From: Eubacteriales bacterium
GTDB lineage: Bacteria > Bacillota > Clostridia > Oscillospirales > CAG-382
Assembly: GCA_045589515.1 (NCBI GenBank)
Contig: JAZNPH010000045.1
Location: 5,560 to 69,559 of the forward strand
DNA length: 64,000 nucleotides
Reading direction: 5' to 3'
The notes beneath the pieces were generated by a model that saw only the letters and a program-made list of their open reading frames with translations, was not told where the DNA came from and ran no database searches. Of this stretch, positions 7,547-41,483 are shown one piece after another (the stretch's first letter is position 1; each line of letters opens with the position of its first letter). Both the position numbers and the translations under genes were made by a program.

Positions 7547-7548
7547 TG

Positions 7549-24891: not shown

Positions 24892-25671
24892 TTACTTCTT
24901 TTTTGAATTGTTTTGCTTCCCTTTGAGATAGGGATTATCGCCATAGCCGTAGCCATAATCGCCCTTACCATACCCATAACGATAGTATTTTTTATAATAC
25001 TTCCCGTATCTATAGTAAGACCCTTTATAAAAACGGCTGTTGTGGATCGTCACTCGGTTCAAAACAGTTCCGAGAACAGGACAACCGCTTTTCTCAAGCT
25101 GCTCCAAAACGTTCTTGGCAAAATGTCTGCTGATGGTATTTGCACAGATTACCAATACAGAACCGTCACAATTCTTCGCGACAACGGCGGCATCAATAAC
25201 GGCCCCCAAGGGAGGAGTATCCACAATGATCATGTCGTATTGAGACTTCAGTTCCTCCAACAATTGAACGAATGCTGAGGAACCGAGAAGTTCTACAGGA
25301 TTGGGCGGCACAACGCCGGCAAACAAAATATCCAAATTGGAAAACTGTGTTTTACAAACGCATTCTTCAAAAGAATTTGTCTTGGAAATAACGCATGTGG
25401 TTCCCAAAGATACATCCTCGCCGAGTAACCGTCTGGCCATAACAGATTTTCTCAGGTCGGTATCTAAGAGCAGAACACGCTGGCCATCCTCCGCAAATGC
25501 TTTTGCGATTCCAAAGGAAACGGTGGTCTTACCATCGCTTTGTAAGCATGAGGTGACCATGATCACTTTATGATCCGCACCGCAAAAGCGAATATTGGTA
25601 CGTAAGGTCTTGAACGCCTCGGAAATTCTGTAATCATCCTGAAAATCAATCTGCACTTGAATTTGTTTCAT
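24892..25671 (-). CDS. CpsD/CapB-family bacterial tyrosine kinase (BY-kinase), cytoplasmic subunit
   Basis: Walker A SCLQSDGKTT, Walker A' LLLDTDLR, Walker B IIVDTPP. The Tyr-cluster C-terminus reads YYRYGKYYKKYYRYGYGKGDYGYGYGDNPY. Confidence 0.88.
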   Translation of the reverse strand: MKQIQVQIDFQDDYRISEAFKTLRTNIRFCGADHKVIMVTSCLQSDGKTTVSFGIAKAFAEDGQRVLLLDTDLRKSVMARRLLGEDVSLGTTCVISKTNSFEECVCKTQFSNLDILFAGVVPPNPVELLGSSAFVQLLEELKSQYDMIIVDTPPLGAVIDAAVVAKNCDGSVLVICANTISRHFAKNVLEQLEKSGCPVLGTVLNRVTIHNSRFYKGSYYRYGKYYKKYYRYGYGKGDYGYGYGDNPYLKGKQNNSKKK

Positions 25672-26525
25672 GACCGAGCGCCCTCCTTTCTTCCCGCGGA
25701 TTTCTTATGTTTCTCCTCAGTGATTTCCGTTTCGGGAATCATCGCCAATACAGGAAGGCCTAAGTATTTTTCCACGTCTTCAGAGGTATTGATCTTGTCG
25801 TCGCGTAAGTACAACAGTACTAAAACACCCGCTACGAGAGCCATACCAACCAAAGCTGCAAGAACAGCCAAGGTATAACGCTTGGAAGATGCAGGCATAT
25901 AAGATAAGCGAGGCTGTTCGTCAATGGCCACCTCTTCCACTCCAAAGAAGTCGGAAAGGCTGACCAGCGATGCTTTCAAAACGGCATTAGTCGCAGCGTA
26001 AGAGAGGATGGGATCGGTAGACTGTACAACCACTCGCAAATAATGCGTATTTTCCACATTCTCGATAGAAGTGGCAGATCGCAAGGTCTTCCAGTCAACG
26101 GATGCACAGATCTGACGAATGTACGATTCAAGCTCTGCCTCGTTTACCTGATTGGTGGCATCGAGATACACAGCTCGAAGCTCCTCCGGCAACAAGTCAA
26201 CTGCTTTGCGGAAATTTTCTTCCGTGGTCACACGGTAAATGTAGTCATCCATAACCATGCCGGTATAACTGATTTCGCTACTTCCGAACTGATTTTCCTT
26301 CTTTTCTACAAGGAAAATACTGCCGTAGGATTCATAGGTATCTACATAAGTTGCATCCGTATATACCATTGCAACACCGCCAAAAAGAATGGCTACCAGC
26401 AGAACCAGCCACCATTTCCCTATGACGGAAAGAAAGATATCCCAAATGGCAACGGTATTTTCTTGTTCGGATGCTTCCGAAGTATAATTCGTTACTTTCT
26501 TATTCTCCACAATACACCAACCCAA
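25668..26525 (-). CDS. Wzz/CapA/YwqC-type transmembrane modulator of the BY-kinase (polysaccharide co-polymerase fold)
   Basis: Two TM helices flank an extracellular domain. The C-terminal activator tail is ...DVEKYLGLPVLAMIPE. A 4-nt overlap links it to the kinase gene. Confidence 0.8.
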   Translation of the reverse strand: MGWCIVENKKVTNYTSEASEQENTVAIWDIFLSVIGKWWLVLLVAILFGGVAMVYTDATYVDTYESYGSIFLVEKKENQFGSSEISYTGMVMDDYIYRVTTEENFRKAVDLLPEELRAVYLDATNQVNEAELESYIRQICASVDWKTLRSATSIENVENTHYLRVVVQSTDPILSYAATNAVLKASLVSLSDFFGVEEVAIDEQPRLSYMPASSKRYTLAVLAALVGMALVAGVLVLLYLRDDKINTSEDVEKYLGLPVLAMIPETEITEEKHKKSAGRKEGARS

Positions 26526-26586
26526 AAATATTTACTGAAATATTATAACCAATTCGCAAAACGAGGACAAGGCGATTCGTGACGTT

Positions 26587-28131
26587 CTACTCCTCTTCCC
26601 CGGCGGGAATTGCAACCTTGATCTCAAAAACGCCCTCGGCAAAGAAAGGTACAGCAACGCCTCCGTATTTTTCCGCAATCTCATAAATGATCTGTAACCC
26701 CAAGCCATGACGGGTTCCGTCTTCCTTTGTGGTGTGGAACAAGCCGTTGTCCGCCACCCGGGGCTCTTTAATATAAGGATTGCGACAATCAATACGCATT
26801 ACGTTTTTTTCCATACGGATCATGATCTCAACCCATCGTTGATCCTCGGGCAAAAGGGATACAGCCTCCAAAGCATTTTGAAGGATATTATTCAACTCGC
26901 TGGCAATATCAGTATCCTTGATATCCAGCTTGGACGGCAAAACGGCATGGCAGCGAAAATCAGCGCCAAGCTTTTCGAAGCGCTCCTCGAACATCAAAAG
27001 CAGATAATTTGTCAGAATATGTCTGCAATATTGATCTGCACGAACCGTGGCAATATAATCTGTCATATTACCAAGGTATTCTTCCAACTGCCCATACTCT
27101 CCGTTTTTGCAAAGCATGGCAGCAACATTCAAGGTATTGGAAATATCGTGCTTGATTTTTCGTACAGAATCCTCGTATCTTTGAAGATTCTGCGCGTATT
27201 CCATATTGGCCTCGTCCCTCGAACGCAGCGTTTGCAATTGCAAAGTGTGCTGATGGTACTGCCTAAGGTAATTGACGATGATCAGGACTGAAGTTCCGAA
27301 AAAAACGATCGGATCCAGGACATTGGCACGCACCCAATTTAGCGAAAGATCGAACGTCACCAGTTCGTCCCTTACACGTGCGACGGAAAAACCGTTCCTA
27401 ATCAACACAACTACCGCATGAAAAACGATCACGGTAAAGAAAGATAGTACAAAAGCCGATCCGAAGGAACGCAGGAAGACGTTTTTCGACTTCCATTCCA
27501 GAAGAGAAAACAAAATCCCAAGAGCAAAGCAGAAAATAAACGCGATATCGCTGACAGTACTAAACCAAAATATCGTGCTTGACTCCATATTCCACGCCAA
27601 TGCAAACAGCAAGGCGGATGAAGCAAAACAATTTGCCAACACGAACGGTATATAGAAACGATCGTATCGACGCATATAGTAGATCAGGCACAAAAGTAAC
27701 GGCAGGACAGAGAGCTGCCCAAGTCCATCAGCGACCTGAGAAAACACGTGCGGTCTTGCGGCAGACAGCAAACGTCCGATCTTACCCAAGCAACTCAAAA
27801 CGCCCAACGAGGAACACCAGATCAACAAAACCGGAATTAACTGGAATTTATTCTCCCAGGCATTCATTAGGAAGACCACGCACATACATGCCAGCAGCAA
27901 CAAGAAAAAGCACATGGAGAAGAAATAGCCAATATAGGAATACCATTCCTCAAAAATCACATAGATTTCTTGAGAATCCGCCAACGCTGCCAAATCCCGC
28001 GGCAAACTGTCAAAGGAGAGAATGGTCATAATCTCCACAGCCAGAATAGCGGTAATCCCCAGCACGGAAAGTATAAACAGTCTTCTTTTTCGCCACCAAG
28101 CGGAAAAAGAGATCCTCTCTACCCGTTTCAT
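26587..28131 (-). CDS. AgrC/HPK10-like sensor histidine kinase (multi-TM sensor plus GHKL ATPase)
   Basis: About 6-7 N-terminal TM helices, H-box KIKHDISNTLN, N-box NILQNALEA, G-box HGLGLQI. Overlaps the LytTR regulator gene (ATGA). Confidence 0.8.
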   Translation of the reverse strand: MKRVERISFSAWWRKRRLFILSVLGITAILAVEIMTILSFDSLPRDLAALADSQEIYVIFEEWYSYIGYFFSMCFFLLLLACMCVVFLMNAWENKFQLIPVLLIWCSSLGVLSCLGKIGRLLSAARPHVFSQVADGLGQLSVLPLLLCLIYYMRRYDRFYIPFVLANCFASSALLFALAWNMESSTIFWFSTVSDIAFIFCFALGILFSLLEWKSKNVFLRSFGSAFVLSFFTVIVFHAVVVLIRNGFSVARVRDELVTFDLSLNWVRANVLDPIVFFGTSVLIIVNYLRQYHQHTLQLQTLRSRDEANMEYAQNLQRYEDSVRKIKHDISNTLNVAAMLCKNGEYGQLEEYLGNMTDYIATVRADQYCRHILTNYLLLMFEERFEKLGADFRCHAVLPSKLDIKDTDIASELNNILQNALEAVSLLPEDQRWVEIMIRMEKNVMRIDCRNPYIKEPRVADNGLFHTTKEDGTRHGLGLQIIYEIAEKYGGVAVPFFAEGVFEIKVAIPAGEEE

Positions 28132-28838
28132 AATGCGCCGATCATGGAAGCAAAGCGCTCCTGCGCCTCTTTATACGAGGGCTTGGCGATGGGAATAATG
28201 GACCCGTCGGTCATGATAAAACGATAGTTCTGCAAACGATGCACATAGCTCATATTTACAGCATAGCTTCTGTGACACTTGAAGAAATAGCTCCCCGGGA
28301 GCTCGGGAACAAACTCCGAAAAAACGCCGGAAAAGCGCAAGGTTTCCCCATTGTTCAGCTGCATTACGATGTCATGCCCCATGGATTCCAGATACAAAAT
28401 GCTTTCATATTGAACTACGGTTCTACCCTTGTATTTATCGTTGATCATAAACGTAGGACGCTTTAAATAGAGGGTCAGGATACGATCCAACAACGCGTGG
28501 ACATCCTTCTTTGAAATGGGTTTAGCAAGAAAAGTGATGGGATAAATGGAAAAAGCTTCCAATGCATAGTCGGTATTCGAGGACACAAAAACAATATTGG
28601 TGTCATCGCTTCGCTCTCTCATTTGCTTTGCAAATTCCATCCCGGAATCACTGCGAATCATAATATCCAAGAACAAAAGATCGAACTTCTGCTCCTTCTG
28701 CGCGCGTTCCAACTCAAACAGAGCCGTAAAAGCGTCCACACTGTACGGATAATTACGATATTCCATATATTCGGTGATATATTCCACCATACTATCATTG
28801 AAAACGCGTTCGTCGTCACAGATCGCAATACGGAACAT
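28128..28838 (-). CDS. LytR/AlgR-family response regulator (REC plus LytTR DNA-binding domain)
   Basis: MFRIAICDDE..., phospho-acceptor context LLFLDIMI, and a C-terminal LytTR region (ILYLES...FFKCHRSYAVNMSYV). Confidence 0.9.
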   Translation of the reverse strand: MFRIAICDDERVFNDSMVEYITEYMEYRNYPYSVDAFTALFELERAQKEQKFDLLFLDIMIRSDSGMEFAKQMRERSDDTNIVFVSSNTDYALEAFSIYPITFLAKPISKKDVHALLDRILTLYLKRPTFMINDKYKGRTVVQYESILYLESMGHDIVMQLNNGETLRFSGVFSEFVPELPGSYFFKCHRSYAVNMSYVHRLQNYRFIMTDGSIIPIAKPSYKEAQERFASMIGAL

Positions 28839-28873
28839 AGAAGCCTCCTAAAAGAACGATTTGCAAGAGTTAT

Positions 28874-30124
28874 TTAAATACTTTGCTTCTTACGGTACAA
28901 GAACAAAAGGCGCACCAACAAAGCAACAAGACAAATACCGCCTACAACAGCGATGCAAAGAATGATTCCCGTCCAGTTCCTTTCTTCGGGCTGAAACGGT
29001 GTAATGACCACGTCATTAATCGATTGAGAAGAGGAGGAGTCGATTACATCAGAGGAAGTAACAGAAACCGCTTCTTCGGAAGAGTCGGAAGACACGTTGC
29101 TTTCTTCATACTCGGACACTTCATCAGATTCCTCGATACTCTGTTCGTCGGAAGTGTTATCTATCGAAGAATCATCGGAGAAATCGGGTTCCTCCTCCGA
29201 TGAATCATCCGGCACGGAAAGCTCCTCTTCAGAAGAATCTTCCGGTAAAGACGGCTCTTCCTCGGAAGAATCATCAGAAGTCAAAGACTCATCCCCGGAA
29301 ACAATCTGAGAAATCTCCGGCGGACGCTCGCGGAACAACACGATGGTGTACTCCATTTCCGTACCGTCCTCAGCAGAAACCTTAACAGTAATGGGATTTG
29401 TACCTTCGGCCAAATCCCCTTCCGCCTCAACAATTACCGTTGCTGACGAATCATTTGGAACAGCTTGTATACGGTAGCGGGTATACTCATTGGGGACGGT
29501 TGCGCTATAAAAATCCACCTTGCTTGAAAACGCAGGATTTAACGTGGGGATAAAGCCTCGCTCATCCTCCTGCGCCTCAAAAACCGTGATGTTCAGGGAC
29601 TTTAAAGTAGCATCCGAGGATTTTTTATCAACAAATTTGACGGTAAAAGATGCGTCGTTAACGTCTTCGGTATGGGAGCCGTTCAAAATTTTACCGGAGG
29701 TGAAACGTACGGTGGTGCTACTCCCCAGCTTAGCTGTATCGTATACAAGAAACGTAAGATTCACCATTTTGGTAACAGTTCTTTCGTGGGTCAAAATGAC
29801 AGTTCCTGTATCAGCAAAGAAATGAAACTCTTTTTGATATTTGCCGTTGACAGGCTTCACGCCGGTCAGCTTCAAAACAGAATCATCGTACTCCAATACA
29901 CCCTGATAGCCGTATGCGCCAGAATCCAGCAACAATCTTACGGTAAAAGTATCTCCGGGACAAACTTCCTTTTCGGCAGAAAGCCTCGCTGTATAGCACA
30001 CGCCCACCAATTGGAGCGCAGAAACGCAAGGAATCAAAAGCATAACGGTCAGAAGAAGAGAAGCTACGCGTCTCTTCAAAGGCGTTTGGGTTTTATTTTT
30101 GGTATGATTACGATTCAAAATCAA
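28874..30124 (-). CDS. membrane-anchored surface protein: signal peptide, one cohesin-like domain, cadherin-like beta-sandwich domain, acidic Ser/Asp/Glu stalk, C-terminal TM anchor
   Basis: Cohesin-like pattern GDTFTVRLLLDSGAYGYQGVLEYDDSVLKLTGVKP...TVRFTSGKILNG. Cadherin-like pattern SSDATLKSLNITV...YTIVLFRE. DSSEEE repeats are followed by GIILCIAVVGGICLVALLVRLLFLYRKK. Confidence 0.7.
   Translation of the reverse strand: MILNRNHTKNKTQTPLKRRVASLLLTVMLLIPCVSALQLVGVCYTARLSAEKEVCPGDTFTVRLLLDSGAYGYQGVLEYDDSVLKLTGVKPVNGKYQKEFHFFADTGTVILTHERTVTKMVNLTFLVYDTAKLGSSTTVRFTSGKILNGSHTEDVNDASFTVKFVDKKSSDATLKSLNITVFEAQEDERGFIPTLNPAFSSKVDFYSATVPNEYTRYRIQAVPNDSSATVIVEAEGDLAEGTNPITVKVSAEDGTEMEYTIVLFRERPPEISQIVSGDESLTSDDSSEEEPSLPEDSSEEELSVPDDSSEEEPDFSDDSSIDNTSDEQSIEESDEVSEYEESNVSSDSSEEAVSVTSSDVIDSSSSQSINDVVITPFQPEERNWTGIILCIAVVGGICLVALLVRLLFLYRKKQSI
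29165..29285 (-). repeat. in-frame roughly 30-nt tandem repeats encoding (P/S)xDSSEEE(P/L)x
   Basis: Protein: TSDDSSEEEPSL PEDSSEEELSV PDDSSEEEPDF SDDSS. The + strand shows repeated ...cctcggaagaatcatc... units. Confidence 0.6.
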
Positions 30125-32057: not shown

Positions 32058-32073
32058 CCTTTATTTTTAATGA

Positions 32074-32592
32074 TTACGGGGCCTTCTCAACCACCGCTAA
32101 TTTCACGCGGAAAAGCTTGGCAAACTCCCGGTCGCCTATGGAATAAGAGATGCTAAGAAGGTTGGTGTCGGGCACCATAGTGATTTCAAAGGCGGTAATT
32201 TTGCTTTGAAGAAGCTCTGAAGATGCTCCATCCTCCGCCTTGAAAATGGTTAACGTTCCATCAACTGACCAAACCAACGATTCCCCCGTGGGAACATCTT
32301 CAAAAAAGTCTTCCGCCGTTTTAGTCCGAGAATAAAAGGAAATTACCTTGGAGCCGTTCTGTTGGTCGCGCTCATCAAGCAAAATGAAACAATCTTCATT
32401 TTCGAAAAGCAATTCTAACCGCTTATTCAGCAAATCGGCATCCTGTGCTGCAGAAGTACCGGTAACGATCATATTGTTAGAACGGATAGAGAACATCAGC
32501 AAAGTAAAAGCGGAAATGCCAACGATGGAAAGAATGGCGATAGCGCTGATCAACTCGATTAAGGTGACGCCTTTGTTAAGATTACGCTTCAT
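32074..32592 (-). CDS. type IV pilin-like protein (prepilin N-terminal cleavage/methylation domain)
   Basis: MKRNLNKG|VTLIELISAIAILSIVG: G-1, E+5 and a hydrophobic helix. Start at 32592 follows AGGAGG and forms an ATGA overlap with the upstream gene. Confidence 0.8.
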   Translation of the reverse strand: MKRNLNKGVTLIELISAIAILSIVGISAFTLLMFSIRSNNMIVTGTSAAQDADLLNKRLELLFENEDCFILLDERDQQNGSKVISFYSRTKTAEDFFEDVPTGESLVWSVDGTLTIFKAEDGASSELLQSKITAFEITMVPDTNLLSISYSIGDREFAKLFRVKLAVVEKAP

Positions 32593-33023
32593 TGGGACAC
32601 CTCCTGCCAAACAGACGAATCCCAACTAAAATACTTAGAAGCATTCCCCTTAGAGATCGTAATGATATAGGTTTCCCCCTCCGGTTTCTCGACAGTTACA
32701 GAAACGCCGTCAAAAAGATAATCTTCAGGATATTCTCCATCCAAGCCGCTCGAGCAACTGTCAAAAAATGCAACAAGAAGATTCTTTCCATCAGTCTCAA
32801 GTAGTAAATTGTCAATAGAAGTGCCTTGGTTAAGAGCGTTGTGGATCAGATCAGCGCAGAGCTCTACCTCGGCAAGGTGCTGTTGATTTTCCTCTGCCTG
32901 AATAGCGTTTCCATAATGGTTGAAAGAAAGAAAAATCGTCCAAGCCAGCAAAATGCTTGCAATAGCAAGTACAGCAACAACTGTCACAAGGCCTGCGCCA
33001 CGGTTTGCATTTCGTTTAACCAT
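32589..33023 (-). CDS. atypical minor pilin-like protein (PilX/ComGG-like N-terminus without Glu5)
   Basis: MVKRNANRGAGLVTVVAVLAIASILLAW has a basic leader and a hydrophobic helix but no E+5. It sits between two canonical pilin genes with overlapping stops and starts. Confidence 0.5.
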   Translation of the reverse strand: MVKRNANRGAGLVTVVAVLAIASILLAWTIFLSFNHYGNAIQAEENQQHLAEVELCADLIHNALNQGTSIDNLLLETDGKNLLVAFFDSCSSGLDGEYPEDYLFDGVSVTVEKPEGETYIITISKGNASKYFSWDSSVWQEVSQ

Positions 33024-33486
33024 AAGACAACAACCCCTTTCTCTCGATTACAAGGTCGTCGCCGCTTACAACATAAGTCACCTTAATGTCAACGCGACAG
33101 TAAGGTTTCACTAAGTTCGTTAGGGTTAATTCAAAGTGGTAACGGTTGTAAGAAAATTCCAACTTGTCACCGCTAAATTCGCTGGGAAGCCCCAGTATAT
33201 CAAGAGGTTCGGAAGCATATTTGACGAACTCGGCCAAAAACGCTGCTTTCAACTTGCCGAGATACTCAGCTTCATTCTTCGGATCGGCATCCTCATCCAT
33301 CTTAACCTGCATCTCTTCCAACAACATCATCACGTCATCTGCGGCGTCATTCATGGCAGACAAATGATAGGCCTTTGCATCTGTTTTTGCGGCCAATGCA
33401 AAAGAGGAAACGATCGGAAGAGAAATAATTCCCAAGATCGCTACAGCGACCAGAAGCTCTACAAAGCTAAAGCCTTTATTTTTCAT
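33016..33486 (-). CDS. type IV pilin (candidate major subunit of this locus)
   Basis: MKNKG|FSFVELLVAVAILGIISLPIV is a canonical class III signal with G-1/F+1/E+5. It is the first pilin gene after pilO. Confidence 0.8.
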   Translation of the reverse strand: MKNKGFSFVELLVAVAILGIISLPIVSSFALAAKTDAKAYHLSAMNDAADDVMMLLEEMQVKMDEDADPKNEAEYLGKLKAAFLAEFVKYASEPLDILGLPSEFSGDKLEFSYNRYHFELTLTNLVKPYCRVDIKVTYVVSGDDLVIERKGLLSYG

Positions 33487-33523
33487 ACCGAACGTCTCCT
33501 TTCTTTTGAATGTTTAATCGGAT

Positions 33524-34153: not shown

Positions 34154-34171
34154 TGATCAATTGCCCTCCTT

Positions 34172-36427
34172 TCAAGATTGCGACGATTCGTCGGAGGTTT
34201 CCCCGGAGATCTCGTCAGAAACGTCCGGAAGCTCTTCAAATTCACCGGTATACTGCAATGCTACAGAGAAGGAAAGAATCTCGGTATTCACAATCTGCTG
34301 AGGTAATTTAATACCGCTTCCCTCTTCCGAATACTCGGTACGGACATGCTTAATGAAAATATTATCCCAAGTGTAGCCGAAGGATCCCATTTTATCGAGG
34401 TATCCGTTGTAATCCTCTTCGGTGATATCGAAATCAGACAAGGGGAAGACATTGTTGTTGACGTAGGTAAAGCTGTCAAGCACAGAAAGATCTTCCGTCT
34501 GGTTCGTATTCAAATATTTCACCATGGCATCCATAAGCTCATCTGCACGCTGTACCAAAGGATTATCGGCATACATAGGCTTCATAAGCTCAATCATGGA
34601 AAGAACGGTTTCGTCAACGGTATACTCCAAATACGTATGAGGAATATAGTTGGAGTACACATCAGCGGGTGAAAGCACACCGCTTTGCAGCATCGGAATC
34701 AACGCATCCAGCTGTGCCTGCGTATAGTCCTCATACTTGGAGGCAAGGTTCTCGCGAGACAAGTGCCCTTCGGAATCCAGCAAAGCATCGATATTATACC
34801 CGGTCACTTGAGAATCCTGGGTAATGGAGATCGCAGAAGGCGTTCCCATGGTGACAGAAGCGCAGTTGCGGAGCGTTTGGATCACATACGCAGCTTCCTC
34901 TCTGGTGCTGACGCGAATGTTCATGACTACGCCCTTGTCACTGACAGAAATACCGAACACGCGGAACTGAGAGGGCATTTTACGCTCTAACTCTTCAATG
35001 AACTGAACGAAATGATCGTTGTAAGTCTCCATATAATCGTCGATAGAGCCGATGCCCTTTTGGAGAGACTCATACAAGCTGACAGCATTTTGGTATGCGT
35101 TCTTCTCTTTGGTGGTATCGCCAAGAGCAATCAACTCAGCATTCAGCATGGATTCATGAGAGACGACAAGATCTCTATCCGCATCCGACATATATACCAA
35201 AGCACCGGAAATGGCACCGCAGATCAAGAAGCAAACGATACCAATGGCAAGGAGCGTATTCTGCACAGAACGATCATTGAAGACATCAAGCGCAGAAACA
35301 GTATTCGACTTCTGTCGGTTTGCCAAGTTAATAGGATGAATGCAGGCGCCGATAGGCGCTGCAAACTCAGCAAAGGAAAACGCAAAGGAATCACCGGCAT
35401 TGGCATATTTTTTTTCAAGCTCGCTCTCCAACGGAACCACAGGGAGATCCAGCTCGTGAGCCAATAGATCATTAAAGCCACCGTACAACAGGGAGCCGCC
35501 TACCAAATAGACCTCGATAGAACTGGTGGACGTAACAGAGAGATAATACTCTACGCTACGGCGAATAGAAACGATCAAAGAACGTAGTGCTCTGGTGCAG
35601 CGAGCCTTGTCGCCGGCATAAGCAGGATCATCCCCTCGCTCCAAGGCGGTATAGCACAGGTCGTCATCGCGATCACGCAGAAGCCGATCATAAGAAATCG
35701 GTTCATTTTCGTCGATAAGATCGGGAAGTAATTGAGCCATTAAGGCACTGGAGCCCACCGACAGCATTCTTTGGAGGCAGATGGTTCCGCCTTTCACAAA
35801 CGTCAACACGGCATGCTCAGAATAAACGGAAACGAGCAACTGCGTTTTTTCGGTATTGATTGTCTCCTTAACCAGATCTCTCGCGGAAACCTTCACAGCC
35901 TGGAAAACACCGTTGCCACCAAAGTCAATGGCCACAATATCCAATCCGACGTAGTTTGCAAATTGGTAATATGAACGAATGATATCTCTGGGAACGGCGC
36001 ACACCAAAAGCTTATGCATACGCTTGCCGTCCTCATCAACTTTTCCCAAACTGTTATAAATCAACTTGTAGTCGGAAATGTTAACAGGAAAATAGTCGGA
36101 GGCGTTTTGATACAGCAAAGTCTCGATCTTGGATTCCTTTACCAAAGGAATCGTAATCTCGCGGTTGATGATACGGGAGGAAGAGATCGAGAATGCAGCA
36201 CGGTCAGCAGAAACACCTACACGAGCAAGCGTTTCCTTGAAGGACTGACGGAATTTCTCGCTTTCCTGCACCAATCCATCTTCCGAAATAAGGTTCAAAG
36301 GGGTGGGTACCGTAAACGCATGGTAAATCTTAGGAGCTTTGGATTTAAAATCCATCTCCACCACACGAGTCACACCATTATCCAATTCAATGCCGAGTAC
36401 CTTCGGCGCACCAATTGTAATATTCAT
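34172..36427 (-). CDS. pilM: PilM-PilN fusion protein with a long extra C-terminal extracytoplasmic extension
   Basis: Residues 1-365 are actin-like PilM (VLGIELDNGVTRVVEM..., DIVAIDFGG, VYLVGGS). TM at 391-413 (LLAIGIVCFLICGAISGALVYM), PilN-like region to about 535, then 216 further residues ending in an acidic tail. Confidence 0.78.
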   Translation of the reverse strand: MNITIGAPKVLGIELDNGVTRVVEMDFKSKAPKIYHAFTVPTPLNLISEDGLVQESEKFRQSFKETLARVGVSADRAAFSISSSRIINREITIPLVKESKIETLLYQNASDYFPVNISDYKLIYNSLGKVDEDGKRMHKLLVCAVPRDIIRSYYQFANYVGLDIVAIDFGGNGVFQAVKVSARDLVKETINTEKTQLLVSVYSEHAVLTFVKGGTICLQRMLSVGSSALMAQLLPDLIDENEPISYDRLLRDRDDDLCYTALERGDDPAYAGDKARCTRALRSLIVSIRRSVEYYLSVTSTSSIEVYLVGGSLLYGGFNDLLAHELDLPVVPLESELEKKYANAGDSFAFSFAEFAAPIGACIHPINLANRQKSNTVSALDVFNDRSVQNTLLAIGIVCFLICGAISGALVYMSDADRDLVVSHESMLNAELIALGDTTKEKNAYQNAVSLYESLQKGIGSIDDYMETYNDHFVQFIEELERKMPSQFRVFGISVSDKGVVMNIRVSTREEAAYVIQTLRNCASVTMGTPSAISITQDSQVTGYNIDALLDSEGHLSRENLASKYEDYTQAQLDALIPMLQSGVLSPADVYSNYIPHTYLEYTVDETVLSMIELMKPMYADNPLVQRADELMDAMVKYLNTNQTEDLSVLDSFTYVNNNVFPLSDFDITEEDYNGYLDKMGSFGYTWDNIFIKHVRTEYSEEGSGIKLPQQIVNTEILSFSVALQYTGEFEELPDVSDEISGETSDESSQS

Positions 36428-36449
36428 TTTCGCTCACTTTCTGAATCTT

Positions 36450-37223
36450 TTATACGAGAAGTGAAATATACCATTCCACAAATGGATCACACAGGAACAA
36501 GGAAAGAAGGACACCTAAAGAAAGATAGGGACCCATGGCAAGAACGTGGTCTGCATTTGAGCGCTTCATCCGCACAGAATGTATCAATGAGCCAAGAATA
36601 CATCCTGCAAGAAATGCGAAGCATATCTTTTGCCAGCCTATCAAAAGGCCGCAGGCAGCCATAAGCTTGACATCTCCCCCGCCGATCGCTCTTCCTTTGG
36701 AAACCAAAAAGATCAAGAGCAAGGGAAGGCTGATGCAAAGAAGACCGATCAAAGAATCAAGCCAAGAAGACAAGTCTGTCAGCAGACGAACAACGCCAAG
36801 ACATCCGATGAAGATGTTGAAGCCCACAGGAATCTCATACGTACGAAAATCAATCACGCTCAAGGCTAACAGGGCAGAACACATGAGCGCCAACAACAAC
36901 GCATGAAGCAGAGGAATCATCTCTGCACCATCCGCGGGTAAATACCATGCAAAAACGAAAAACCAACAGACTGCATTCGCGCCTTCTACCAAAGGATATT
37001 GAGGTGAGAGACGCGCTTTGCAGTAGCGGCACTTCCCTCCCAGAGACAACCAGCTTACCACAGGAAATAAGTCGTACCAAGCTAAGCGATGTCCACAGGA
37101 CATACAGTGAGAAGGCGTTTTAACAAACTCTTCTTTTTTCGGAATGCGGAAAATCAGCACGTTCAGAAAACTACCGATCAATGCTCCGAACACAGCCGCA
37201 ATAGCGGCAATCAAATATCTCAT
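36450..37223 (-). CDS. pilD: prepilin peptidase/N-methyltransferase (A24 family)
   Basis: FLNVLIFRIP, zinc motif CMSCGH...CRYCK, active-site context GGGDVKLMAACG. Confidence 0.92.
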   Translation of the reverse strand: MRYLIAAIAAVFGALIGSFLNVLIFRIPKKEEFVKTPSHCMSCGHRLAWYDLFPVVSWLSLGGKCRYCKARLSPQYPLVEGANAVCWFFVFAWYLPADGAEMIPLLHALLLALMCSALLALSVIDFRTYEIPVGFNIFIGCLGVVRLLTDLSSWLDSLIGLLCISLPLLLIFLVSKGRAIGGGDVKLMAACGLLIGWQKICFAFLAGCILGSLIHSVRMKRSNADHVLAMGPYLSLGVLLSLFLCDPFVEWYISLLV

Positions 37224-37231
37224 ACACTACC

Positions 37232-38452
37232 TCATGCCGCACTGCCGAGCGCATCGTACATGGAGAACATGGGGAGCAAAATAGAACATACAACGATACC
37301 GACGATAGCAGCCATAACCAAAATAATAGCGGGTTCAAGAGCGGCGAGCAATGCCTTGGTTGCAGCCTCTACCTCCTCGTCGTAATAATCAGCGAGTCGA
37401 TCGAGCATCTCCTCCAGGTCGCCGGTTTCCTCGCCAATACCGGTCATGTGGTAAACCATGGGAGGGAACAAGCCATTGGACTCCAAAGGTACGGAAAGGT
37501 TCGCACCGGCAGCCGCTTCGTCACGGCAGAAAAGAACCGCCTCTTTGAAGTAGATATTATTCATATTTTTCGCAGTGATCTCCAAAGAATCGAGCATAGG
37601 AAGACCGGAGGAGGTCAACGTGCTCAAAGTTCTTGCAAAATTAGCGCTTGCACTCTTGACTGTCATATCGCCAAACAGCGGGAGCTTCATCACAATTTTT
37701 CCAAAGAAGTGTCTCCCTTTGTCGGTTTTCGAAAACATAACCAGCAGGCAAACCACGGCAAATATGCCCAGGAACAACTTCCACCAATGGGCAACCATCC
37801 AGTCGGAGAAGCCCATGACGATCTTTGTAATGAAAGGAAGATCCATGCCCATATCTTCAAAAACACCCGTAAAAGCAGGGATAACCATGACCATCATAAT
37901 CGCGACAACTACAACCACGACAACCAAAACGATCGTAGGATAAACCATAGCTTTTTTGACTGCACCCTTTACACGGGAACCCTTTTCGAAGTGATCCGCA
38001 AGACGGGAAAACGCCTTTTCCAAATTACCGGATGCTTCTCCCGCAGCAACCATGTTGATCATCATCGCAGGAAAAATATCGGGAGAATGAAGACGCATAG
38101 CGTCAGAAAGAGATTCACCCTTTTCGATCTGTGCATGAGTATCCAAAATCGCTTTCTTCAGACGAACATTTTGTGTCTGAGAAGCCAGCATGGTCAATGC
38201 TGCAAAAATAGGAATGCCGGCGCTGACAATACTCACAAACTGACGGCAGAAAACCCCCAGATCACGAGCTTTGACACGATTCAAAAACGGAAGATCAATA
38301 TCCTTTGTCAAAAGCCCCTGTTCCTTCAGCTCGATGGCGGTCAGATCACTGCGCTTCAAAAATGCGCGAGCTTGCTCCAGATCTTCCGCCTCGATACTGC
38401 CTTTTTTAATTTTACCAAGCGGGTTTACCGCAACATAACCGTAAGAAGGCAT
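37232..38452 (-). CDS. pilC: type IV pilus platform protein PilC (T2SS-F family)
   Basis: 406 aa with two T2SSF repeats and three TM helices. N-terminus YGYVAVNPLGKIKKGSIEAEDLEQARAFLK is typical. Confidence 0.92.
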   Translation of the reverse strand: MPSYGYVAVNPLGKIKKGSIEAEDLEQARAFLKRSDLTAIELKEQGLLTKDIDLPFLNRVKARDLGVFCRQFVSIVSAGIPIFAALTMLASQTQNVRLKKAILDTHAQIEKGESLSDAMRLHSPDIFPAMMINMVAAGEASGNLEKAFSRLADHFEKGSRVKGAVKKAMVYPTIVLVVVVVVVAIMMVMVIPAFTGVFEDMGMDLPFITKIVMGFSDWMVAHWWKLFLGIFAVVCLLVMFSKTDKGRHFFGKIVMKLPLFGDMTVKSASANFARTLSTLTSSGLPMLDSLEITAKNMNNIYFKEAVLFCRDEAAAGANLSVPLESNGLFPPMVYHMTGIGEETGDLEEMLDRLADYYDEEVEAATKALLAALEPAIILVMAAIVGIVVCSILLPMFSMYDALGSAA

Positions 38453-38473
38453 TTTTCACCTCGGTAACGAATA

Positions 38474-39535
38474 TCAAATGTTCATGATCTTTTTTTGTAA
38501 CGTAATGGGGTCGTGGGCAAAATCTACTGCCGTATTCAGGGAAATACGGCGCTGAAGGTACAACTCAGACAAATGATCATCCATTGTTTGCATCCCAAGT
38601 TTTTTACCGGTTTGAATATTGGAAGTGATCTGGAAGGTCTTATTCTCACGGATCAAATTACGAATGGCATTGGTTGCAACCATCACTTCGAAAGCCGCCT
38701 CTCGCTTACCATCTACGGTAGGCACCAGACTCTGACATAGAATGCATTCGATGGCATTGGCAAACTGGATGCGAATCTGCTGTTGTTGTTCCTCAGGGAA
38801 CGCGTCGATTACACGGTCCACGGTGGCCGCCGCACTGTTGGTATGTAAGGTAGCCAAAACCAAGTGGCCTGTCTCCGCCGCGGTTATGGCAGTGGAAATG
38901 GTTTCAAGGTCACGCATTTCTCCCACCAAAATAACATCGGGATCCTGACGCAAAGCGGCACGAAGAGCTGCGGAAAATGTTTTTGTATCCACGCCGATCT
39001 CTCTCTGATGGATGATAGACTGGATGTGAGGATGCACAAACTCTACCGGGTCTTCCAAGGTAACGATATGCTTTTTATAATTGCTGTTCAAGTAATTGAT
39101 CACAGCAGCAAGCGTCGTGGACTTACCGCTACCCGTAGGCCCTGTAACTAAGATCAACCCGCGCTTTTTGCAGGATGACTTCACCACCGCATCGGGGACC
39201 TTTGTTTCCTCGATGGTAGGCATTTTAACAGGAAGCAAACGCAAAGCCAAGGCGTAATTGCCTCGTTCATGATAAATGTTGCATCTTAATCGGGATAGCC
39301 CCTCAAAAGAATACGCAAAGTCCACTTCCCCGTCTCTTTCCAAAACGGAGCGGGTACGAGCATCCATGATCTCCTCCGCGCAAGAGATCACGTCTCTCTC
39401 GGTCAAGATCTCATCGTTCCAAAAAATCAGTTCACCGGAACAGCGGAACTGGATTGGTCTCCCCACAGAAATATGAATATCCGAAGCTTTTGCTTCCAAA
39501 GCACCTAAAATGGCGCCCCTCATTCGTTCAGCCAT
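38474..39535 (-). CDS. pilT: twitching-motility retraction ATPase PilT
   Basis: 353 aa. ASDIHI, Walker A GPTGSGKSTT, Asp box, Walker B ILVGEMRD, His box ATLHTNSA. Confidence 0.93.
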   Translation of the reverse strand: MAERMRGAILGALEAKASDIHISVGRPIQFRCSGELIFWNDEILTERDVISCAEEIMDARTRSVLERDGEVDFAYSFEGLSRLRCNIYHERGNYALALRLLPVKMPTIEETKVPDAVVKSSCKKRGLILVTGPTGSGKSTTLAAVINYLNSNYKKHIVTLEDPVEFVHPHIQSIIHQREIGVDTKTFSAALRAALRQDPDVILVGEMRDLETISTAITAAETGHLVLATLHTNSAAATVDRVIDAFPEEQQQQIRIQFANAIECILCQSLVPTVDGKREAAFEVMVATNAIRNLIRENKTFQITSNIQTGKKLGMQTMDDHLSELYLQRRISLNTAVDFAHDPITLQKKIMNI

Positions 39536-39580
39536 ATACTCTAAAGCCTTTCTTTTCTTCCAAACACAAATAAAGCGAGA

Positions 39581-41269
39581 TCAATCCTCGAAGGAAACGT
39601 TCAAGGATTCTCTGAAAGAGGTAATCCCCTCCAAAGCAAGTCGGATAGCACTTGCGCGAAGCGTGCTCATTCCGTTTGCAACGGCAGCCTTCTTAATGGT
39701 GTTGGCATTTTCCTTGCGGGAGATCATATATTTGATTTCCGGCGTAACTTCAAGGATCTCGTATACACCGATACGACCTGTAAAACCGGTCTGGTTGCAT
39801 CTCTGACAACCGACGGATTCGTACAACTCCACCTTACTGTCTGCAGGAAGCCCCATAAAGGCAAGCTCGTTGGGTTCCGCAAATTTCTTCTTCTTGCAGT
39901 GAGGGCACAAGCGGCGAACAAGTCGCTGTGCGATGATGCCCACCACAGAGTCTGCGATCAAATAACTGTCCACACCCATATCCAAAAGACGGGTAATGGA
40001 GCTCGCGGAGCTGTTGGTATGCAAGGTGCTGACCACCAAGTGACCTGTAATGGACGCTTGTACGGCGATCATTGCGGTCTCTGTATCACGAATCTCACCA
40101 ATCATGATAATATCCGGGTCCTGACGCAAAATGGAACGCAGTGCGTTAGCGAAGGTCATATCTGCCTTGGTGTTGACCTGAACCTGGTTGATGCCGTCGA
40201 TATTGGCCTCCACAGGGTCCTCGACGGTGATAATATTGGTGCTCTCGGCATTCAATTCACTCAAAGCGGTGTACAGAGTAGTGGACTTACCACTACCCGT
40301 AGGCCCGGTAATCAAAACGATGCCGTGGGGATGAGCCAGCAGATGGTCAAACTTTACAAGCTCGTCATCCGAGAAGCCAAGCAATCTTTTATCTCTGGTA
40401 AAATCTTGCTTTACCTGCAAACGAAGCACACACTTTTCGCCAAATACTGTGGGAAGGCAGGAAACACGGATGTCGTATTCCCGGTGATCCACAATGTAGG
40501 TAGCACGACCATCTTGAGGCTTACGCTTTTCCGAAATATCCATACCGCTGATGATCTTGATACGGGCAATAATGGCGGAAGCCAGCTGAGAAGCATACTT
40601 CACACGATTATACAGCACACCGTCGATTCGATAGCGAACACGAACGGATTCAGCAAGAGCTTCCACATGAATATCCGAAGCTCGCTGACGGGCAGCTTGC
40701 TCGATCATGGAGTTGACGATAACGACAATAGGAGAATTATTGATCTCATCTACCCTGTCATCCTCGGCCTCTTGGTTCATTTTTTCCCGCTCTTTGGTAT
40801 ACTGCTCAGCTACAGATAGGGTAGCGTTCCTGCCATAATAACGGTCAATCGCCGACATGATGTCCGTAGGCGTGGATACGTAAGGTTCAACGTGCATTCC
40901 CGTCACGATAGAAATATCGTCGATGGCGGTAATATTCATGGGATCAGAGATGGCTACGTACAACGTATTGGTGCCATCCTGAGCATACGCAAAAGGCATC
41001 ACACGATGACGGCGAAGAACAGAATACTCAACGAGAGACTGGATATCTTCTGCAATCTGCAAACCATTCAACACCACCATGGGTGCATCGTACTTCGCAG
41101 CGATCGCTTCCGCAAGCTGGGTTTCGTTTGCCAACCCACGCTCCAAAATGGTATCGTATTCGCTTTTCCCCGTTTCGGAAACCAACGCAAGAACCTCGTT
41201 TGCCGCTTCTGCGGATACAACGAGATGGTCCTGCAATATTTCGATCAAATGTTTTTTCTGGCTGTTCAT
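39581..41269 (-). CDS. pilB: type IV pilus assembly ATPase PilB (GspE family)
   Basis: 562 aa. N-terminal GSPII_E_N-like domain, Walker A GPTGSGKSTT, IMIGEIRD, tetracysteine CPHCK...CQRC. Confidence 0.93.
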   Translation of the reverse strand: MNSQKKHLIEILQDHLVVSAEAANEVLALVSETGKSEYDTILERGLANETQLAEAIAAKYDAPMVVLNGLQIAEDIQSLVEYSVLRRHRVMPFAYAQDGTNTLYVAISDPMNITAIDDISIVTGMHVEPYVSTPTDIMSAIDRYYGRNATLSVAEQYTKEREKMNQEAEDDRVDEINNSPIVVIVNSMIEQAARQRASDIHVEALAESVRVRYRIDGVLYNRVKYASQLASAIIARIKIISGMDISEKRKPQDGRATYIVDHREYDIRVSCLPTVFGEKCVLRLQVKQDFTRDKRLLGFSDDELVKFDHLLAHPHGIVLITGPTGSGKSTTLYTALSELNAESTNIITVEDPVEANIDGINQVQVNTKADMTFANALRSILRQDPDIIMIGEIRDTETAMIAVQASITGHLVVSTLHTNSSASSITRLLDMGVDSYLIADSVVGIIAQRLVRRLCPHCKKKKFAEPNELAFMGLPADSKVELYESVGCQRCNQTGFTGRIGVYEILEVTPEIKYMISRKENANTIKKAAVANGMSTLRASAIRLALEGITSFRESLNVSFED

Positions 41270-41338
41270 TCAGAGAACTCCTCTCTTGGGAATTCGTACA
41301 TGTGCACAAATAAACCCAAGATAAAATAATACGTTTAC

Positions 41339-41367
41339 ATTATATCCGAACAGATTCCCAAAGTCAA
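41339..41367 (-). promoter_or_regulatory. consensus sigma-A promoter upstream of pilB
   Basis: Minus strand: TTGACT (41367-41362), 17-nt spacer, TATAAT (41344-41339), about 70 nt upstream of the pilB ATG. AGAGGAG Shine-Dalgarno precedes the ATG. Confidence 0.6.
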
Positions 41368-41463: not shown

Positions 41464-41483
41464 CTTGCAATTTGACATTGAAA

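Follow-up and report, generated by a model that had tools for sequence, protein, structure and literature searches.

A putative type IVa pilus operon with cohesin-type, LytTR and BY-kinase genes in uncultured gut Clostridia

In an uncultured gut bacterium of the Clostridia, a 16.5-kb string of 15 genes combines a complete type IV pilus machine with three accessory modules. We hold, with moderate confidence, that this string is a type IVa pilus operon specific to one clade and inherited vertically, with the three modules as permanent passengers; this grading covers the identity of the operon and the mechanism proposed below taken together. The window analysed is a 64-kb stretch of DNA, in which all 15 ORFs, described as a single-strand string in an earlier note on this DNA, were recovered on the minus strand at positions 24892-41269 (Table 1). 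Their order is pilB-pilT-pilC-pilD-pilM(N)-pilO, three pilin-like genes, gene 10, gene 11, lytTR, kinase, wzz and BY-kinase. The calls made earlier for the pilus machine and for the cohesin-type, LytTR and BY-kinase genes were all confirmed by family or fold searches. The earlier note had regarded the combination as unfamiliar, and full-text literature searches gave no description of pilus, cohesin-type, LytTR and BY-kinase genes in one operon. The layout is present in about ten related lineages; therefore, it is a real but narrowly distributed version of a known system. The functions assigned to the products below are predictions from sequence.

Table 1. Genes and boundary elements of the 15-gene string, listed from its upstream to its downstream end
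Feature	Position	Strand	Evidence
Terminator of upstream oxaloacetate/methylmalonyl-CoA decarboxylase-type operon (upstream unit boundary)	41438..41466	-	13-bp stem then T-run
Sigma-70-type promoter, TTGACT-17-TATAAT	41339..41367	-	11/12 consensus match
pilB, extension ATPase, 562 aa	39581..41269	-	T2SSE E = 9e-135 plus MshEN N-terminal domain
pilT, retraction ATPase, 353 aa	38474..39535	-	T2SSE E = 3e-50, without MshEN N-domain
pilC, platform protein, 406 aa	37232..38452	-	two T2SSF repeats, E = 4e-66
pilD, prepilin peptidase, 257 aa	36450..37223	-	A24_N_bact plus Peptidase_A24
pilM fused to membrane-spanning PilN-position extracellular region, 751 aa	34172..36427	-	PilM_2 / TIGR01175, residues 10-332
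pilO-like, 209 aa	33524..34153	-	fold match of AlphaFold model
Prepilin 1, 156 aa, MKNKG|FSFVE	33016..33486	-	N_methyl E = 2e-7; TIGR02532; class III signal motif
Atypical pilin-like protein, 144 aa, MVKRNANRGAGLVTVVAVLAI	32589..33023	-	hydrophobic N-terminus, without Glu5
Prepilin 3, 172 aa from ATG at 32592, MKRNLNKG|VTLIE	32074..32592	-	N_methyl; TIGR02532
Gene 10, 649 aa	30108..32057	-	Cohesin E = 6e-10, Cadherin-like E = 5e-8
Gene 11, 416 aa	28874..30124	-	Cadherin-like E = 1e-8
LytTR-family response regulator, 236 aa	28128..28838	-	Response_reg plus LytTR
Sensor histidine kinase, AgrC-type catalytic domain, 514 aa	26587..28131	-	HATPase_c_5 E = 2e-18
Promoter-like element TTGTCC-17-TATAAT in 61-nt gap ahead of wzz	26542..26570	-	10/12 match
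Wzz/CpsC-type transmembrane modulator, PCP2b-like, up to 285 aa (start codon uncertain)	25668..26525	-	Wzz E = 7e-5
BY-kinase, 259 aa	24892..25671	-	NCBIfam TIGR01007, 213.8 bits vs cut-off 108
Bidirectional intrinsic terminator, common to convergent recR	24859..24887	.	12-bp stem, A-run/T-run either side

The Pfam cut-offs were passed by PilB, PilT, PilC, PilD, PilM, two prepilins, Cohesin plus Cadherin-like, Response_reg plus LytTR, and HATPase_c_5. PilB is 81-92% identical to its relatives. In the PilM fusion, the PilM part matches the solved PilM structures 3jc8_M and 2ych, one transmembrane (TM) helix lies at residues 393-411, and the C-terminal ~340 aa presumably represent PilN, to judge from their position. 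The PilO-like protein has no family match in Pfam or NCBIfam, and its family comprises only 31 protein clusters. The best matches of its AF2 model (pLDDT 79) are the solved PilO structures 2rjz, 3jc8_O and 5uvr (probability ~1.0, E = 2e-3), and its identity as PilO was confirmed at the level of the predicted fold. Prepilin 1 is the candidate major pilin. The atypical pilin-like protein matches no family in Pfam or NCBIfam, and its gene keeps its position in all relatives. For prepilin 3, the tabulated ATG, which forms an ATGA overlap with the preceding gene, is most likely the start, and an upstream TTG was set aside in its favour. All three pilin-like proteins are small, and the canonical prepilins 1 and 3 weakly match the ComGE-type minor pilin. 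Together, these components would build a retractile adhesive pilus.

Among the closest known systems are the type IVa clusters of Clostridia and Ruminococcus, for instance the R. flavefaciens 007 pil cluster (PMC3672088; a survey is given in PMC3244431). These likewise carry genes for PilB, PilT, PilC (PulF-like), PilD, PilM and several prepilins, all on one strand, lack a secretin gene in the operon and belong to gut fibre-degrading Firmicutes. In contrast to these clusters, PilM is fused here to a segment in the PilN position, PilO belongs to a highly divergent family, and six genes are added (orphan-domain, cohesin/cadherin, LytTR pair and BY-kinase pair). The matched passages of the R. flavefaciens 007 paper mention none of the six, and the terms 'response regulator' and 'tyrosine' are absent from its searched text (PMC3672088).

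The anatomy of the string, its promoter and its terminators predict that the whole is a single transcription unit. The consensus promoter reported ahead of pilB is the sole 11/12 match within the 18 kb scanned, where matches of at least 9/12 occur at chance level (27 seen versus 24.2 +/- 4.8 expected). It is kept in 9/9 orthologous loci aligned, with TTGAC and TATAAT invariant, the sixth -35 base T or A, and the spacer and flanks variable. Downstream of it are the RBS GAGAGGAG and the pilB ATG at 41269. The terminator of the upstream operon sits just ahead of the promoter (-19.6 kcal/mol, z = -5.5), and relatives have a hairpin in the same place. At the other end, the bidirectional terminator that the earlier note had placed at 24857-24889 was recovered (-18.4 kcal/mol, z = -5.2). 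The gaps from pilB onward are 45, 21, 8, 22, 18, 37, -8, -37, 16, -17, 35, -4, 61 and -4 nt, the value of -37 becoming -4 if pilin 3 starts at its ATG. Thus, all recomputed junctions measure 61 nt or less, as had been claimed, but five overlaps were counted instead of the six reported.

The search for internal signals gave a divided answer. Strong terminators are present at the operon borders only, and folding of all internal spacers of the string, including the 61-nt kinase-wzz spacer, gave no stable hairpin, which favours a single unit. The promoter-like element ahead of wzz speaks against it: the motif TTGnTT-17-TAnnAT after CACGAA recurs there in 6/6 aligned loci having wzz, with a 20-nt spacer in one of them (L011). 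Because this element is recurrent, wzz and the BY-kinase gene may have a transcript of their own as well.

Gene neighbourhoods were surveyed in 11 related lineages, all of them MAGs or metagenome contigs of uncultured gut Clostridia, with records labelled Eubacteriales, Clostridia or 'Ruminococcus sp.'. The adjacency is not unique to this strain, as the 13-gene core from pilB to the kinase gene is present in 11/11 lineages, across which PilO is 52-91% identical to that of the window. The wzz gene comes next after the kinase gene in 8/10 informative lineages, and the BY-kinase gene follows wzz in all seven lineages whose contigs reach that far. The comparison showed this gene order to be ancestral to the clade. 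Judging from pairwise identities, which correlate with those of PilM(N) (r = 0.98 for Wzz and 0.91 for BY-kinase), the Wzz/BY-kinase pair co-diverges with the pilus genes. The pair has been deleted twice, and both lineages keep everything else; in L010, remnants of wzz on the 5' side and of the Tyr cluster on the 3' side flank a ~1.45-kb deletion. Therefore, the pair is not needed for the pilus.

These losses, with the pil genes kept, could also mean that the string is a neighbourhood of independent modules, namely a pilus operon, surface proteins, and a two-component system and a BY-kinase pair that are unrelated to them, adjacent only because the clade is young and its gene order unshuffled, and that the regulators target genes elsewhere. 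The element recurring ahead of wzz is in line with this, as is the conservation of the upstream flank (OAD operon) in relatives, which points to general synteny in the clade. In addition, LytTR-type direct repeats were not recognisable upstream of the pilB promoter, where only a conserved block was seen. However, the neighbour 3' of the pair varies (recR, methyltransferase or citrate synthase) and the pair stays attached to the kinase gene, and in no lineage are the modules separated by terminators or long spacers. Between subclades, the kinase is 52-55% and PilO 52-59% identical, a substantial divergence, and rearrangement therefore had time to occur. We regard independent modules as rather unlikely and retain the reading of the string as one pilus operon.

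Under the operon reading, the Wzz/BY-kinase pair would be co-expressed through read-through, probably also from its own internal promoter. The Wzz protein scores just below the Pfam cut-off (23.5 vs 25.5 bits) and matches the C-terminal part of TIGR01006 (E = 4e-16, under cut-off); it has two TM helices, at 30-48 and at 219-237, and its tail is cytoplasmic. The best solved relatives of the BY-kinase are VpsO 6u1q (7e-40) and CapB 4jlv, and its sequence contains Walker A' VLLLDTDLR, Walker B MIIVDTPP and 14 Tyr in the last 45 residues. The split BY-kinase pairs of Firmicutes (CapA/CapB, CpsC/CpsD and TkmA/PtkA) similarly consist of a separate two-TM modulator and a cytoplasmic kinase that has Walker A, A' and B motifs and a cluster of Tyr at its C-terminus, and the kinase start codon likewise overlaps the modulator stop. 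In contrast to those pairs, the present one ends a pilus operon rather than lying in a capsule/EPS locus, and no glycosyltransferase, flippase, polymerase or phosphotyrosine phosphatase gene adjoins it. A polysaccharide target is hypothetical.

In view of this position, inside a pil operon and far from glycosyltransferase or Wzx/Wzy genes, the pair might instead act directly on the pilus machine, phosphorylating PilB, PilT, PilM or the LytTR regulator and not controlling polysaccharide. According to PMC5035731, BY-kinases of Firmicutes, PtkA among them, phosphorylate cellular proteins, and alternative activators set their substrate specificity. However, the kinase is a typical member of TIGR01007 ('polysaccharide biosynthesis tyrosine autokinase') and its partner is CpsC-like, two lineages retain the pilus genes without the pair, and the substrates are putative only. 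We give such direct action a low probability. In our preferred reading, the pair would tie pilus deployment to the control of polysaccharide (capsule/matrix) chain length or to the phosphorylation of other targets on tyrosine, and attachment and matrix production would thereby be coordinated. In M. xanthus, the pilus and EPS genes occupy separate loci and are linked via signalling pathways. Type IVa pilus function in this organism is tied to a Wzx/Wzy polysaccharide pathway, among whose components are a PCP and a tyrosine (pseudo)kinase (PMC7484181, PMC12004946). Here, unlike in M. xanthus, the kinase pair is physically inside the pilus operon; an EPS locus was not identified here.

The second signalling pair consists of the LytTR regulator, 59-97% identical in relatives, and a sensor kinase whose gene overlaps that of the regulator by 4 nt. 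The kinase has eight hydrophobic segments, suggesting ~8 TM helices, and a KHD H-box; it gave no sequence match to any solved kinase chain. The pair would sense an extracellular or envelope cue and tune transcription of the operon. A parallel exists in P. aeruginosa, where the LytTR regulator AlgR, with the membrane kinase FimS/AlgZ, controls both type IVa pilus biogenesis, via the minor-pilin operon fimU-pilVWXY1Y2E, and alginate and so links pili and matrix (PMC4064291). That system differs in its Gram-negative host, in the location of the regulator genes outside the operon they control and in having no BY-kinase; FimS/AlgZ is of limited characterization, with no demonstrated phosphotransfer (PMC4064291), whereas the kinase here belongs to a different family (AgrC-type HATPase_c_5). 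Agr-type quorum sensing (AgrBDCA) shares the HATPase_c_5 kinase with a polytopic sensor and the overlap of regulator and kinase genes. Unlike AgrBDCA, the present pair has a kinase with ~8 TM helices and lacks an AgrB- or AgrD-like gene, both within the operon and in the scanned ORFs of the window.

Genes 10 and 11 overlap by 14-35 nt in every locus and form a translationally coupled pair. Gene 11 encodes a type I surface protein with a signal peptide, a cohesin module, a cadherin-like module, an acidic Ser/Glu linker and a C-terminal TM anchor, and its family profile matches the solved cohesins 1g1k (E = 0.002), 5nrm, 5nrk, 4ums and 2xdh. Gene 10 encodes a signal peptide, two cohesin-like modules, a cadherin-like module, an acidic linker, a TM helix (477-495) and a conserved cytoplasmic orphan domain of ~150 aa (domain and helix at 30111-30665); its ectodomain is paralogous to gene 11. 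In most relatives, the gene 10 tail is a stand-alone protein of 187-197 aa. It forms only 8 clusters among 1.84 billion representatives, and its AF2 model (pLDDT 84) has no significant fold match. Judging from the relatives, the ancestral gene 10 is a ~190-aa membrane-anchored cytoplasmic orphan domain, and the 649-aa form is a lineage-specific fusion with a duplicated cohesin/cadherin ectodomain. The earlier domain calls for the 649-aa and 416-aa proteins stand, but the 649-aa protein is not the ancestral form. In the window, L009 and L001, fusion of the two parts gives a single receptor-like polypeptide. Because of this Rosetta-stone fusion in the window, we propose that the two products work as one transmembrane unit, with the cohesin ectodomain outside and the orphan domain inside. 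Near the pilus, this unit would anchor or sense a surface ligand of the dockerin or another type.

More distant cohesin/cadherin homologues directly follow giant dockerin proteins. This placement raises another reading, in which the machine would mainly serve cohesin-dockerin surface assemblies, as a type II-secretion-like or display device, and would not be a pilus for adhesion or motility: large dockerin proteins would be exported or positioned with the help of a short pseudopilus and then held at the surface by the gene 10/11 cohesin anchor. The small pilin-like proteins and the weak ComGE-type matches of prepilins 1 and 3 fit such a device, as does an outgroup pilus locus (L018), which lacks both signalling pairs and has a 1932-aa dockerin protein and a sortase directly after its pilins. 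It is nevertheless improbable, because the machine has a retraction ATPase (PilT) and the alignment proteins PilM/PilO, like bona fide type IVa pili, the 64-kb window encodes no dockerin, and the signal peptides of genes 10 and 11 are ordinary Sec-type. With the string read as a pilus operon, its cohesin proteins still resemble the membrane- or wall-anchored cohesins of cellulosome/amylosome-type systems in having a Pfam-passing cohesin that a long acidic stalk connects to a membrane anchor and in the dockerin neighbours of distant family members. They differ from those systems in that no dockerin partner lies in the window, the anchor is a C-terminal TM helix, and the gene is paired, and in the window fused, with a cytoplasmic orphan domain inside a pilus operon.

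The 15 minus-strand genes delimited by ORF listing and translation (pilB, pilT, pilC, pilD, pilM(N), pilO, three pilin genes, the surface-protein genes 10 and 11, a LytTR regulator gene, a histidine kinase gene, wzz and a BY-kinase gene) form a conserved, tightly packed unit that extends from promoter to terminator. The earlier note had stated that all junctions measure 61 nt or less, and the measured gaps (45, 21, 8, 22, 18, 37, -8, -37/-4, 16, -17, 35, -4, 61 and -4 nt) agree with this; overlaps, however, occur at five junctions according to the ORF coordinates, not at six as had been counted. The consensus promoter proposed for the operon was recovered as the sole 11/12 match in the 18 kb scanned, and weaker matches show no enrichment (27 found versus 24.2 +/- 4.8 in shuffled sequence). 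A terminator hairpin upstream of it closes the oxaloacetate/methylmalonyl-CoA decarboxylase operon that forms the upstream flank. The bidirectional terminator claimed for the downstream end was also found, and it is common to the operon and the convergent recR; the convergent downstream flank comprises dnaX-ybaB-recR, followed by hprK, a ROK kinase gene and lon. Housekeeping genes make up both flanks, and the G+C content of the region is not distinct from that of its surroundings. An IS200-like Y1 transposase gene separates the decarboxylase operon from a 5'-nucleotidase gene.

Within the operon, four internal spacers were folded and none gave a hairpin more stable than those of shuffled sequence. 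The search for internal terminators yielded only a hairpin in the coding sequence of pilT, which has a poor T-tract and was not counted as a terminator. This hairpin lies inside the 3' end of pilT and could be a partial pilT/pilC attenuator. A leader RNA or riboswitch like that of C. difficile pilA1 was rejected, because an Rfam search at E <= 1 gave only a sub-threshold match to the L20 leader. This match lies over the terminator of the upstream operon and is most likely due to chance.

Coordinates of the features described (window positions, except in the last two lines)
Feature	Coordinates	Strand	Remarks
Pilus operon	24892-41269	minus	15 genes
Promoter of pilB	41367-41339		TTGACT-17-TATAAT
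Terminator hairpin of the decarboxylase operon	41466-41438		-19.6 kcal/mol, z = -5.5
Bidirectional terminator	24859-24887		-18.4 kcal/mol, z = -5.2
Hairpin in pilT	38529-38550	minus	-11.9 kcal/mol, z = -2.8
Rfam L20_leader match	41428-41522	minus	30.2 bits; gathering score 58.7
Canonical prepilin	33016-33486	minus	N_methyl (Pfam)
Canonical prepilin	32074-32592	minus	N_methyl (Pfam)
Gene 10	30108-32057	minus	649 aa
Gene 11	28874-30124	minus	416 aa
Histidine kinase	26587-28131	minus
Promoter-like element before wzz	26542-26570
Wzz-type modulator	25668-26525	minus
BY-kinase	24892-25671	minus
Sugar-nucleotide genes	12109-16213	minus	UDP-GlcNAc 2-epimerase; NAD-dependent epimerase/dehydratase with Polysacc_synt_C; phosphoglucosamine/phosphoglucomutase-family mutase
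IS200-like Y1 transposase	45424-45894	minus
Secreted-protein region	48163-63430	minus
Giant secreted protein	48163-53751	minus	1862 aa
Small secreted protein	53767-54609	minus	A(K/R)Y
Small secreted protein	54606-55097	minus	A(K/R)Y...D(S/T)ARVA
Giant secreted protein	55198-59739	minus	1513 aa
Small secreted protein	59775-60521	minus	A(K/R)Y
Small secreted protein	60533-61144	minus	A(K/R)Y...D(S/T)ARVA
LPXTG protein	61640-62560	minus
Small secreted protein	62723-63430	minus	A(K/R)Y...D(S/T)ARVA
Candidate integrated element	4333-9831
Tyrosine recombinase	4333-5250
tmRNA gene	7195-7545		tag ANNNSNLVAA
smpB	7549-8052
Tyrosine recombinase	8794-9831
Deletion scar in locus L010	17045-17440
Outgroup locus L018	10837-20630

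The gene assignments of the earlier note were borne out by family searches (Pfam and NCBIfam) and, for PilO, by a fold match. In Pfam, PilB (562 aa) matches T2SSE (E = 9e-135) and MshEN, PilT (353 aa) matches T2SSE (E = 3e-50), PilC contains two T2SSF repeats, and PilD contains A24_N_bact and Peptidase_A24. The N-terminal 330 aa of a 751-aa protein correspond to PilM (matches to Pfam, TIGR01175 and PDB 3jc8_M / 2ych), and PilN would be represented, as we infer, by the TM helix and the extracellular segment that are fused to this part. The PilO-like protein (209 aa) has no sequence-family match; its AlphaFold model (pLDDT 79) shows a long helix and, after it, a ferredoxin-like domain, and the solved PilO structures 2rjz, 3jc8_O and 5uvr are its top Foldseek matches. 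Its family is very small, with 31 clusters in a set of 5.8 billion proteins. In the whole window there are just two canonical class III signal peptides (G-1, E+5), both in prepilins of the operon; a third pilin-like protein is atypical and lacks E5. The start of pilin 3 should be the ATG at 32592. Judged from these matches, the gene set for a type IVa pilus of the monoderm kind is complete, and a retractile filament is predicted. A competence (Com) pseudopilus was ruled out because PilT, PilM and PilO are present.

Orthologous loci were collected by looking up the encoding contigs of the small families and by one scan of GTDB species genomes. They represent 11 lineages, between which PilO is <90% identical except for the window and locus L009 (91%), and all of them come from MAGs or metagenome contigs with the label Clostridia, Eubacteriales or 'uncultured Ruminococcus sp.'; yak colon is the source of one. 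The core from pilB to pilO, the three pilin genes, genes 10 and 11, and the LytTR regulator and kinase genes occur in the same order in all lineages, and the Wzz/BY-kinase pair follows in most of the informative ones, which refutes the possibility that the adjacency is unique to this strain. The pair follows the kinase gene in the window and in L011, L013, L014, L015, L017 and L020, and in L021 wzz follows and runs off the contig end; L009 and L016 were left out of this tally, as their contigs end before the position of the pair. It is absent in L012 and L010/L001-4. L010 contains a deletion scar, in which the spacer with its promoter-like element is kept and approximately 1.45 kb has been deleted, leaving ~60 nt of the 5' end of wzz and the 3' end of the BY-kinase gene that encodes its Tyr cluster (YYRYGYGYGENPYLG). 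The gene downstream of the pair varies (recR, a methyltransferase gene or a citrate synthase gene), with the pair staying attached to the kinase gene. In addition, the pairwise identities of Wzz and BY-kinase correlate with those of PilM(N) (r = 0.98 and 0.91, respectively). Taken together, the distribution of the core and the pair, the deletion remnants, the varying flank and the co-divergence indicate that the 15-gene order is ancestral to the clade and that the pair was lost twice. A recent horizontal gain of the pair was ruled out by the co-divergence, the remnants in L010 and a G+C content like that of neighbouring sequence.

The proteins of the machine are 72-94% identical across lineages, whereas identity drops to only 30-67% in the pilins and the surface proteins, a level expected of exposed proteins. 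The outgroup locus L018 derives from an Oscillospiraceae MAG, and its PilO-like protein shows 39% identity along part of the sequence. The machine genes keep their order at this locus, and of the three pilins the last carries a fused CHAP (peptidoglycan hydrolase) domain; genes for a dockerin protein of 1932 aa and for a sortase come next. The protein in the PilM position is 1142 aa long in this locus. Neither a two-component system nor a BY-kinase was found at the L018 locus, and the signalling cargo is therefore specific to the clade.

Part of this cargo is a two-component system. The regulator consists of Response_reg and LytTR domains (Pfam); the histidine kinase has HATPase_c_5 (Pfam), approximately eight TM helices and a KHD H-box, and its sequence has no relative among solved structures. 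An AgrC-type kinase with HATPase_c_5 and a LytTR regulator are features shared with Agr-type quorum sensing. However, that system also has an AgrB enzyme and an AgrD propeptide, neither of which was found at the operon: none is present beside the kinase gene, where gaps are at most 61 nt, and no AgrB was found among the window ORFs scanned.

The BY-kinase is a ParA/MinD-type ATPase by Pfam and scores 213.8 bits against TIGR01007 of NCBIfam (cut-off 108). It contains a P-loop GKT aligned with that of VpsO, Walker A' (VLLLDTDLR) and Walker B (MIIVDTPP) motifs and 14 Tyr within the last 45 residues, and its closest solved relatives are VpsO and CapB. The modulator has TM helices at residues 30-48 and 219-237, an extracellular loop and a 48-aa cytoplasmic tail; its matches to Wzz (Pfam) and TIGR01006 (CpsC family, E = 4e-16) are significant and lie below the curated cut-offs, narrowly so for Wzz. 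These features identify the two proteins as a bona fide split BY-kinase pair with predicted kinase activity, encoded outside any polysaccharide locus. BY-kinase/PCP2b pairs are expected in a Wzx/Wzy locus, whereas this pair lies between recR-ybaB-dnaX and the pilus operon. No cognate phosphatase was found beside the pair among the window genes scanned. The nearest sugar-nucleotide genes are located 8-12 kb from the pair, beyond housekeeping genes, and no glycosyltransferase, flippase or polymerase was seen.

Genes 10 and 11 encode the surface proteins of the operon. By Pfam, the former contains Cohesin (39.9 bits versus a cut-off of 24.1) and Cadherin-like domains and the latter a Cadherin-like domain. 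The family profile of gene 11 matches solved cohesins, 1g1k (E = 0.002) and then 5nrm, 5nrk, 4ums and 2xdh, and a cohesin module of weak similarity is predicted in these proteins. In the set of 5.8 billion proteins, 26 clusters belong to the surface-protein family. The gene 10 product of most lineages measures only 187-197 aa; a TM helix at its N-terminus precedes a strongly basic stretch and a domain of ~150 aa that ends in GQPIEEVLDFES. In the window, L009 and L001, a larger protein ends in the same TM helix and orphan domain and begins with a signal peptide, after which come one or two cohesin-like modules, a cadherin-like module and an acidic linker. This ectodomain is a duplicate of that of gene 11 (36% and 49% identity over two segments), and the two genes overlap by 14-35 nt in every locus. 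The topology of gene 10 places the orphan domain in the cytoplasm, and the fusion is an argument for joint action of the gene 10 and gene 11 products as a single transmembrane unit.

The confident model of the orphan domain (pLDDT 84) shows helices packed against a six-stranded sheet. The PDB gave only weak NTF2/ketosteroid-isomerase-like matches and no significant one (E >= 0.036, TM 0.25-0.39), and no fold family was assigned; the gene 10 sequence also had no match among solved structures. In a set of 1.84 billion representative proteins the domain forms only eight clusters, each of which belongs to this clade, and an HMMER profile search detected no remote homologues outside it. Clade-restricted and always coupled to a cohesin-type surface protein, it is a candidate new pilus-associated or signalling component. 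As for a dockerin partner, the scanned proteins of the window gave no Dockerin_1 match, and the six-frame translation contained no dockerin-like repeat. Distant homologues of gene 11 (~30% identity) directly follow giant dockerin proteins rather than pilus genes. An association with the cohesin-dockerin system recurs in pilus loci of this lineage and of the outgroup.

When the pilB promoters of nine loci were aligned, the -10 hexamer and TTGAC of the -35 were invariant, with a varying spacer between them, and the terminator hairpin of the preceding operon was kept by position. A block just upstream of the -35 is conserved within each subclade, reading TTTCCTGAAA...TATATTTTACAT in near relatives and showing a related pattern in distant ones. 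Paired ~9-bp direct repeats ~21 bp apart, as a LytTR operator, were sought upstream of the pilB promoter and of wzz, and none was convincing. In the spacer between the kinase gene and wzz, TTGnTT-17-TAnnAT follows CACGAA in all six aligned loci with wzz (with a 20-nt spacer in L011). Given this recurrent element, wzz and the BY-kinase gene may in addition have a transcript of their own; no terminator is present between the kinase gene and wzz.

Type IV pili of Gram-positive gut anaerobes are implicated in attachment to fibre and to host surfaces. In this operon, a machine for such pili is hard-wired to a LytTR system and a BY-kinase pair, an arrangement conserved across the clade; the layout suggests coordination of attachment with polysaccharide or phosphotyrosine signalling. 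The two-component system would tune the operon in response to some cue, the pair would couple pilus deployment to polysaccharide chain-length control or phosphotyrosine signalling, and genes 10 and 11 would anchor or sense a surface ligand. A more ambitious and rather improbable proposal is that the operon is a self-contained Gram-positive surface-sensing circuit, in which the retractile pilus and the cohesin receptor would report contact to the LytTR system and the BY-kinase, and the cell would then switch from attachment to matrix or capsule remodelling. Genes 10 and 11 would be the receptor, the clade-specific cytoplasmic domain the transducer, and the contact would be with a substrate or a partner cell. 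If true, the operon would be a one-operon analogue, built from unrelated parts, of the PilY1/FimS-AlgR surface-sensing pathway of Pseudomonas.

Several elements of this picture have precedents. In P. aeruginosa, AlgR/FimS includes a LytTR regulator needed for both a minor-pilin operon and alginate (PMC4064291), and in M. xanthus the pilus is linked to EPS, with involvement of a PCP and a tyrosine (pseudo)kinase (PMC7484181, PMC12004946). Pilus clusters are also on record for ruminococci (PMC3672088). Our full-text literature search retrieved nothing describing a pilus operon with this cargo and nothing on the regulation of type IV pili in Gram-positive gut anaerobes. Every part is individually well known, and what is new is one orphan domain and a combination that is conserved in a clade both narrow and uncultured; its value is that of a hypothesis, not the discovery of a principle.

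Two further regions of the window were noted. The secreted-protein region encodes two giant and five small secreted proteins together with one LPXTG protein, in an interleaved order; their only match to a Pfam or NCBIfam family is one Flg_new repeat of the 1862-aa protein. An A(K/R)Y motif occurs just past the hydrophobic N-terminal segment of all five small proteins and continues as ...D(S/T)ARVA in three; by eye, these N-termini resemble TasA/camelysin (SipW-type) signals. This region may be an undescribed fibre or surface-assembly locus. In the other region, a tmRNA gene adjoins smpB, with a tyrosine recombinase gene on either side, and the whole may represent an element integrated at the tmRNA site.
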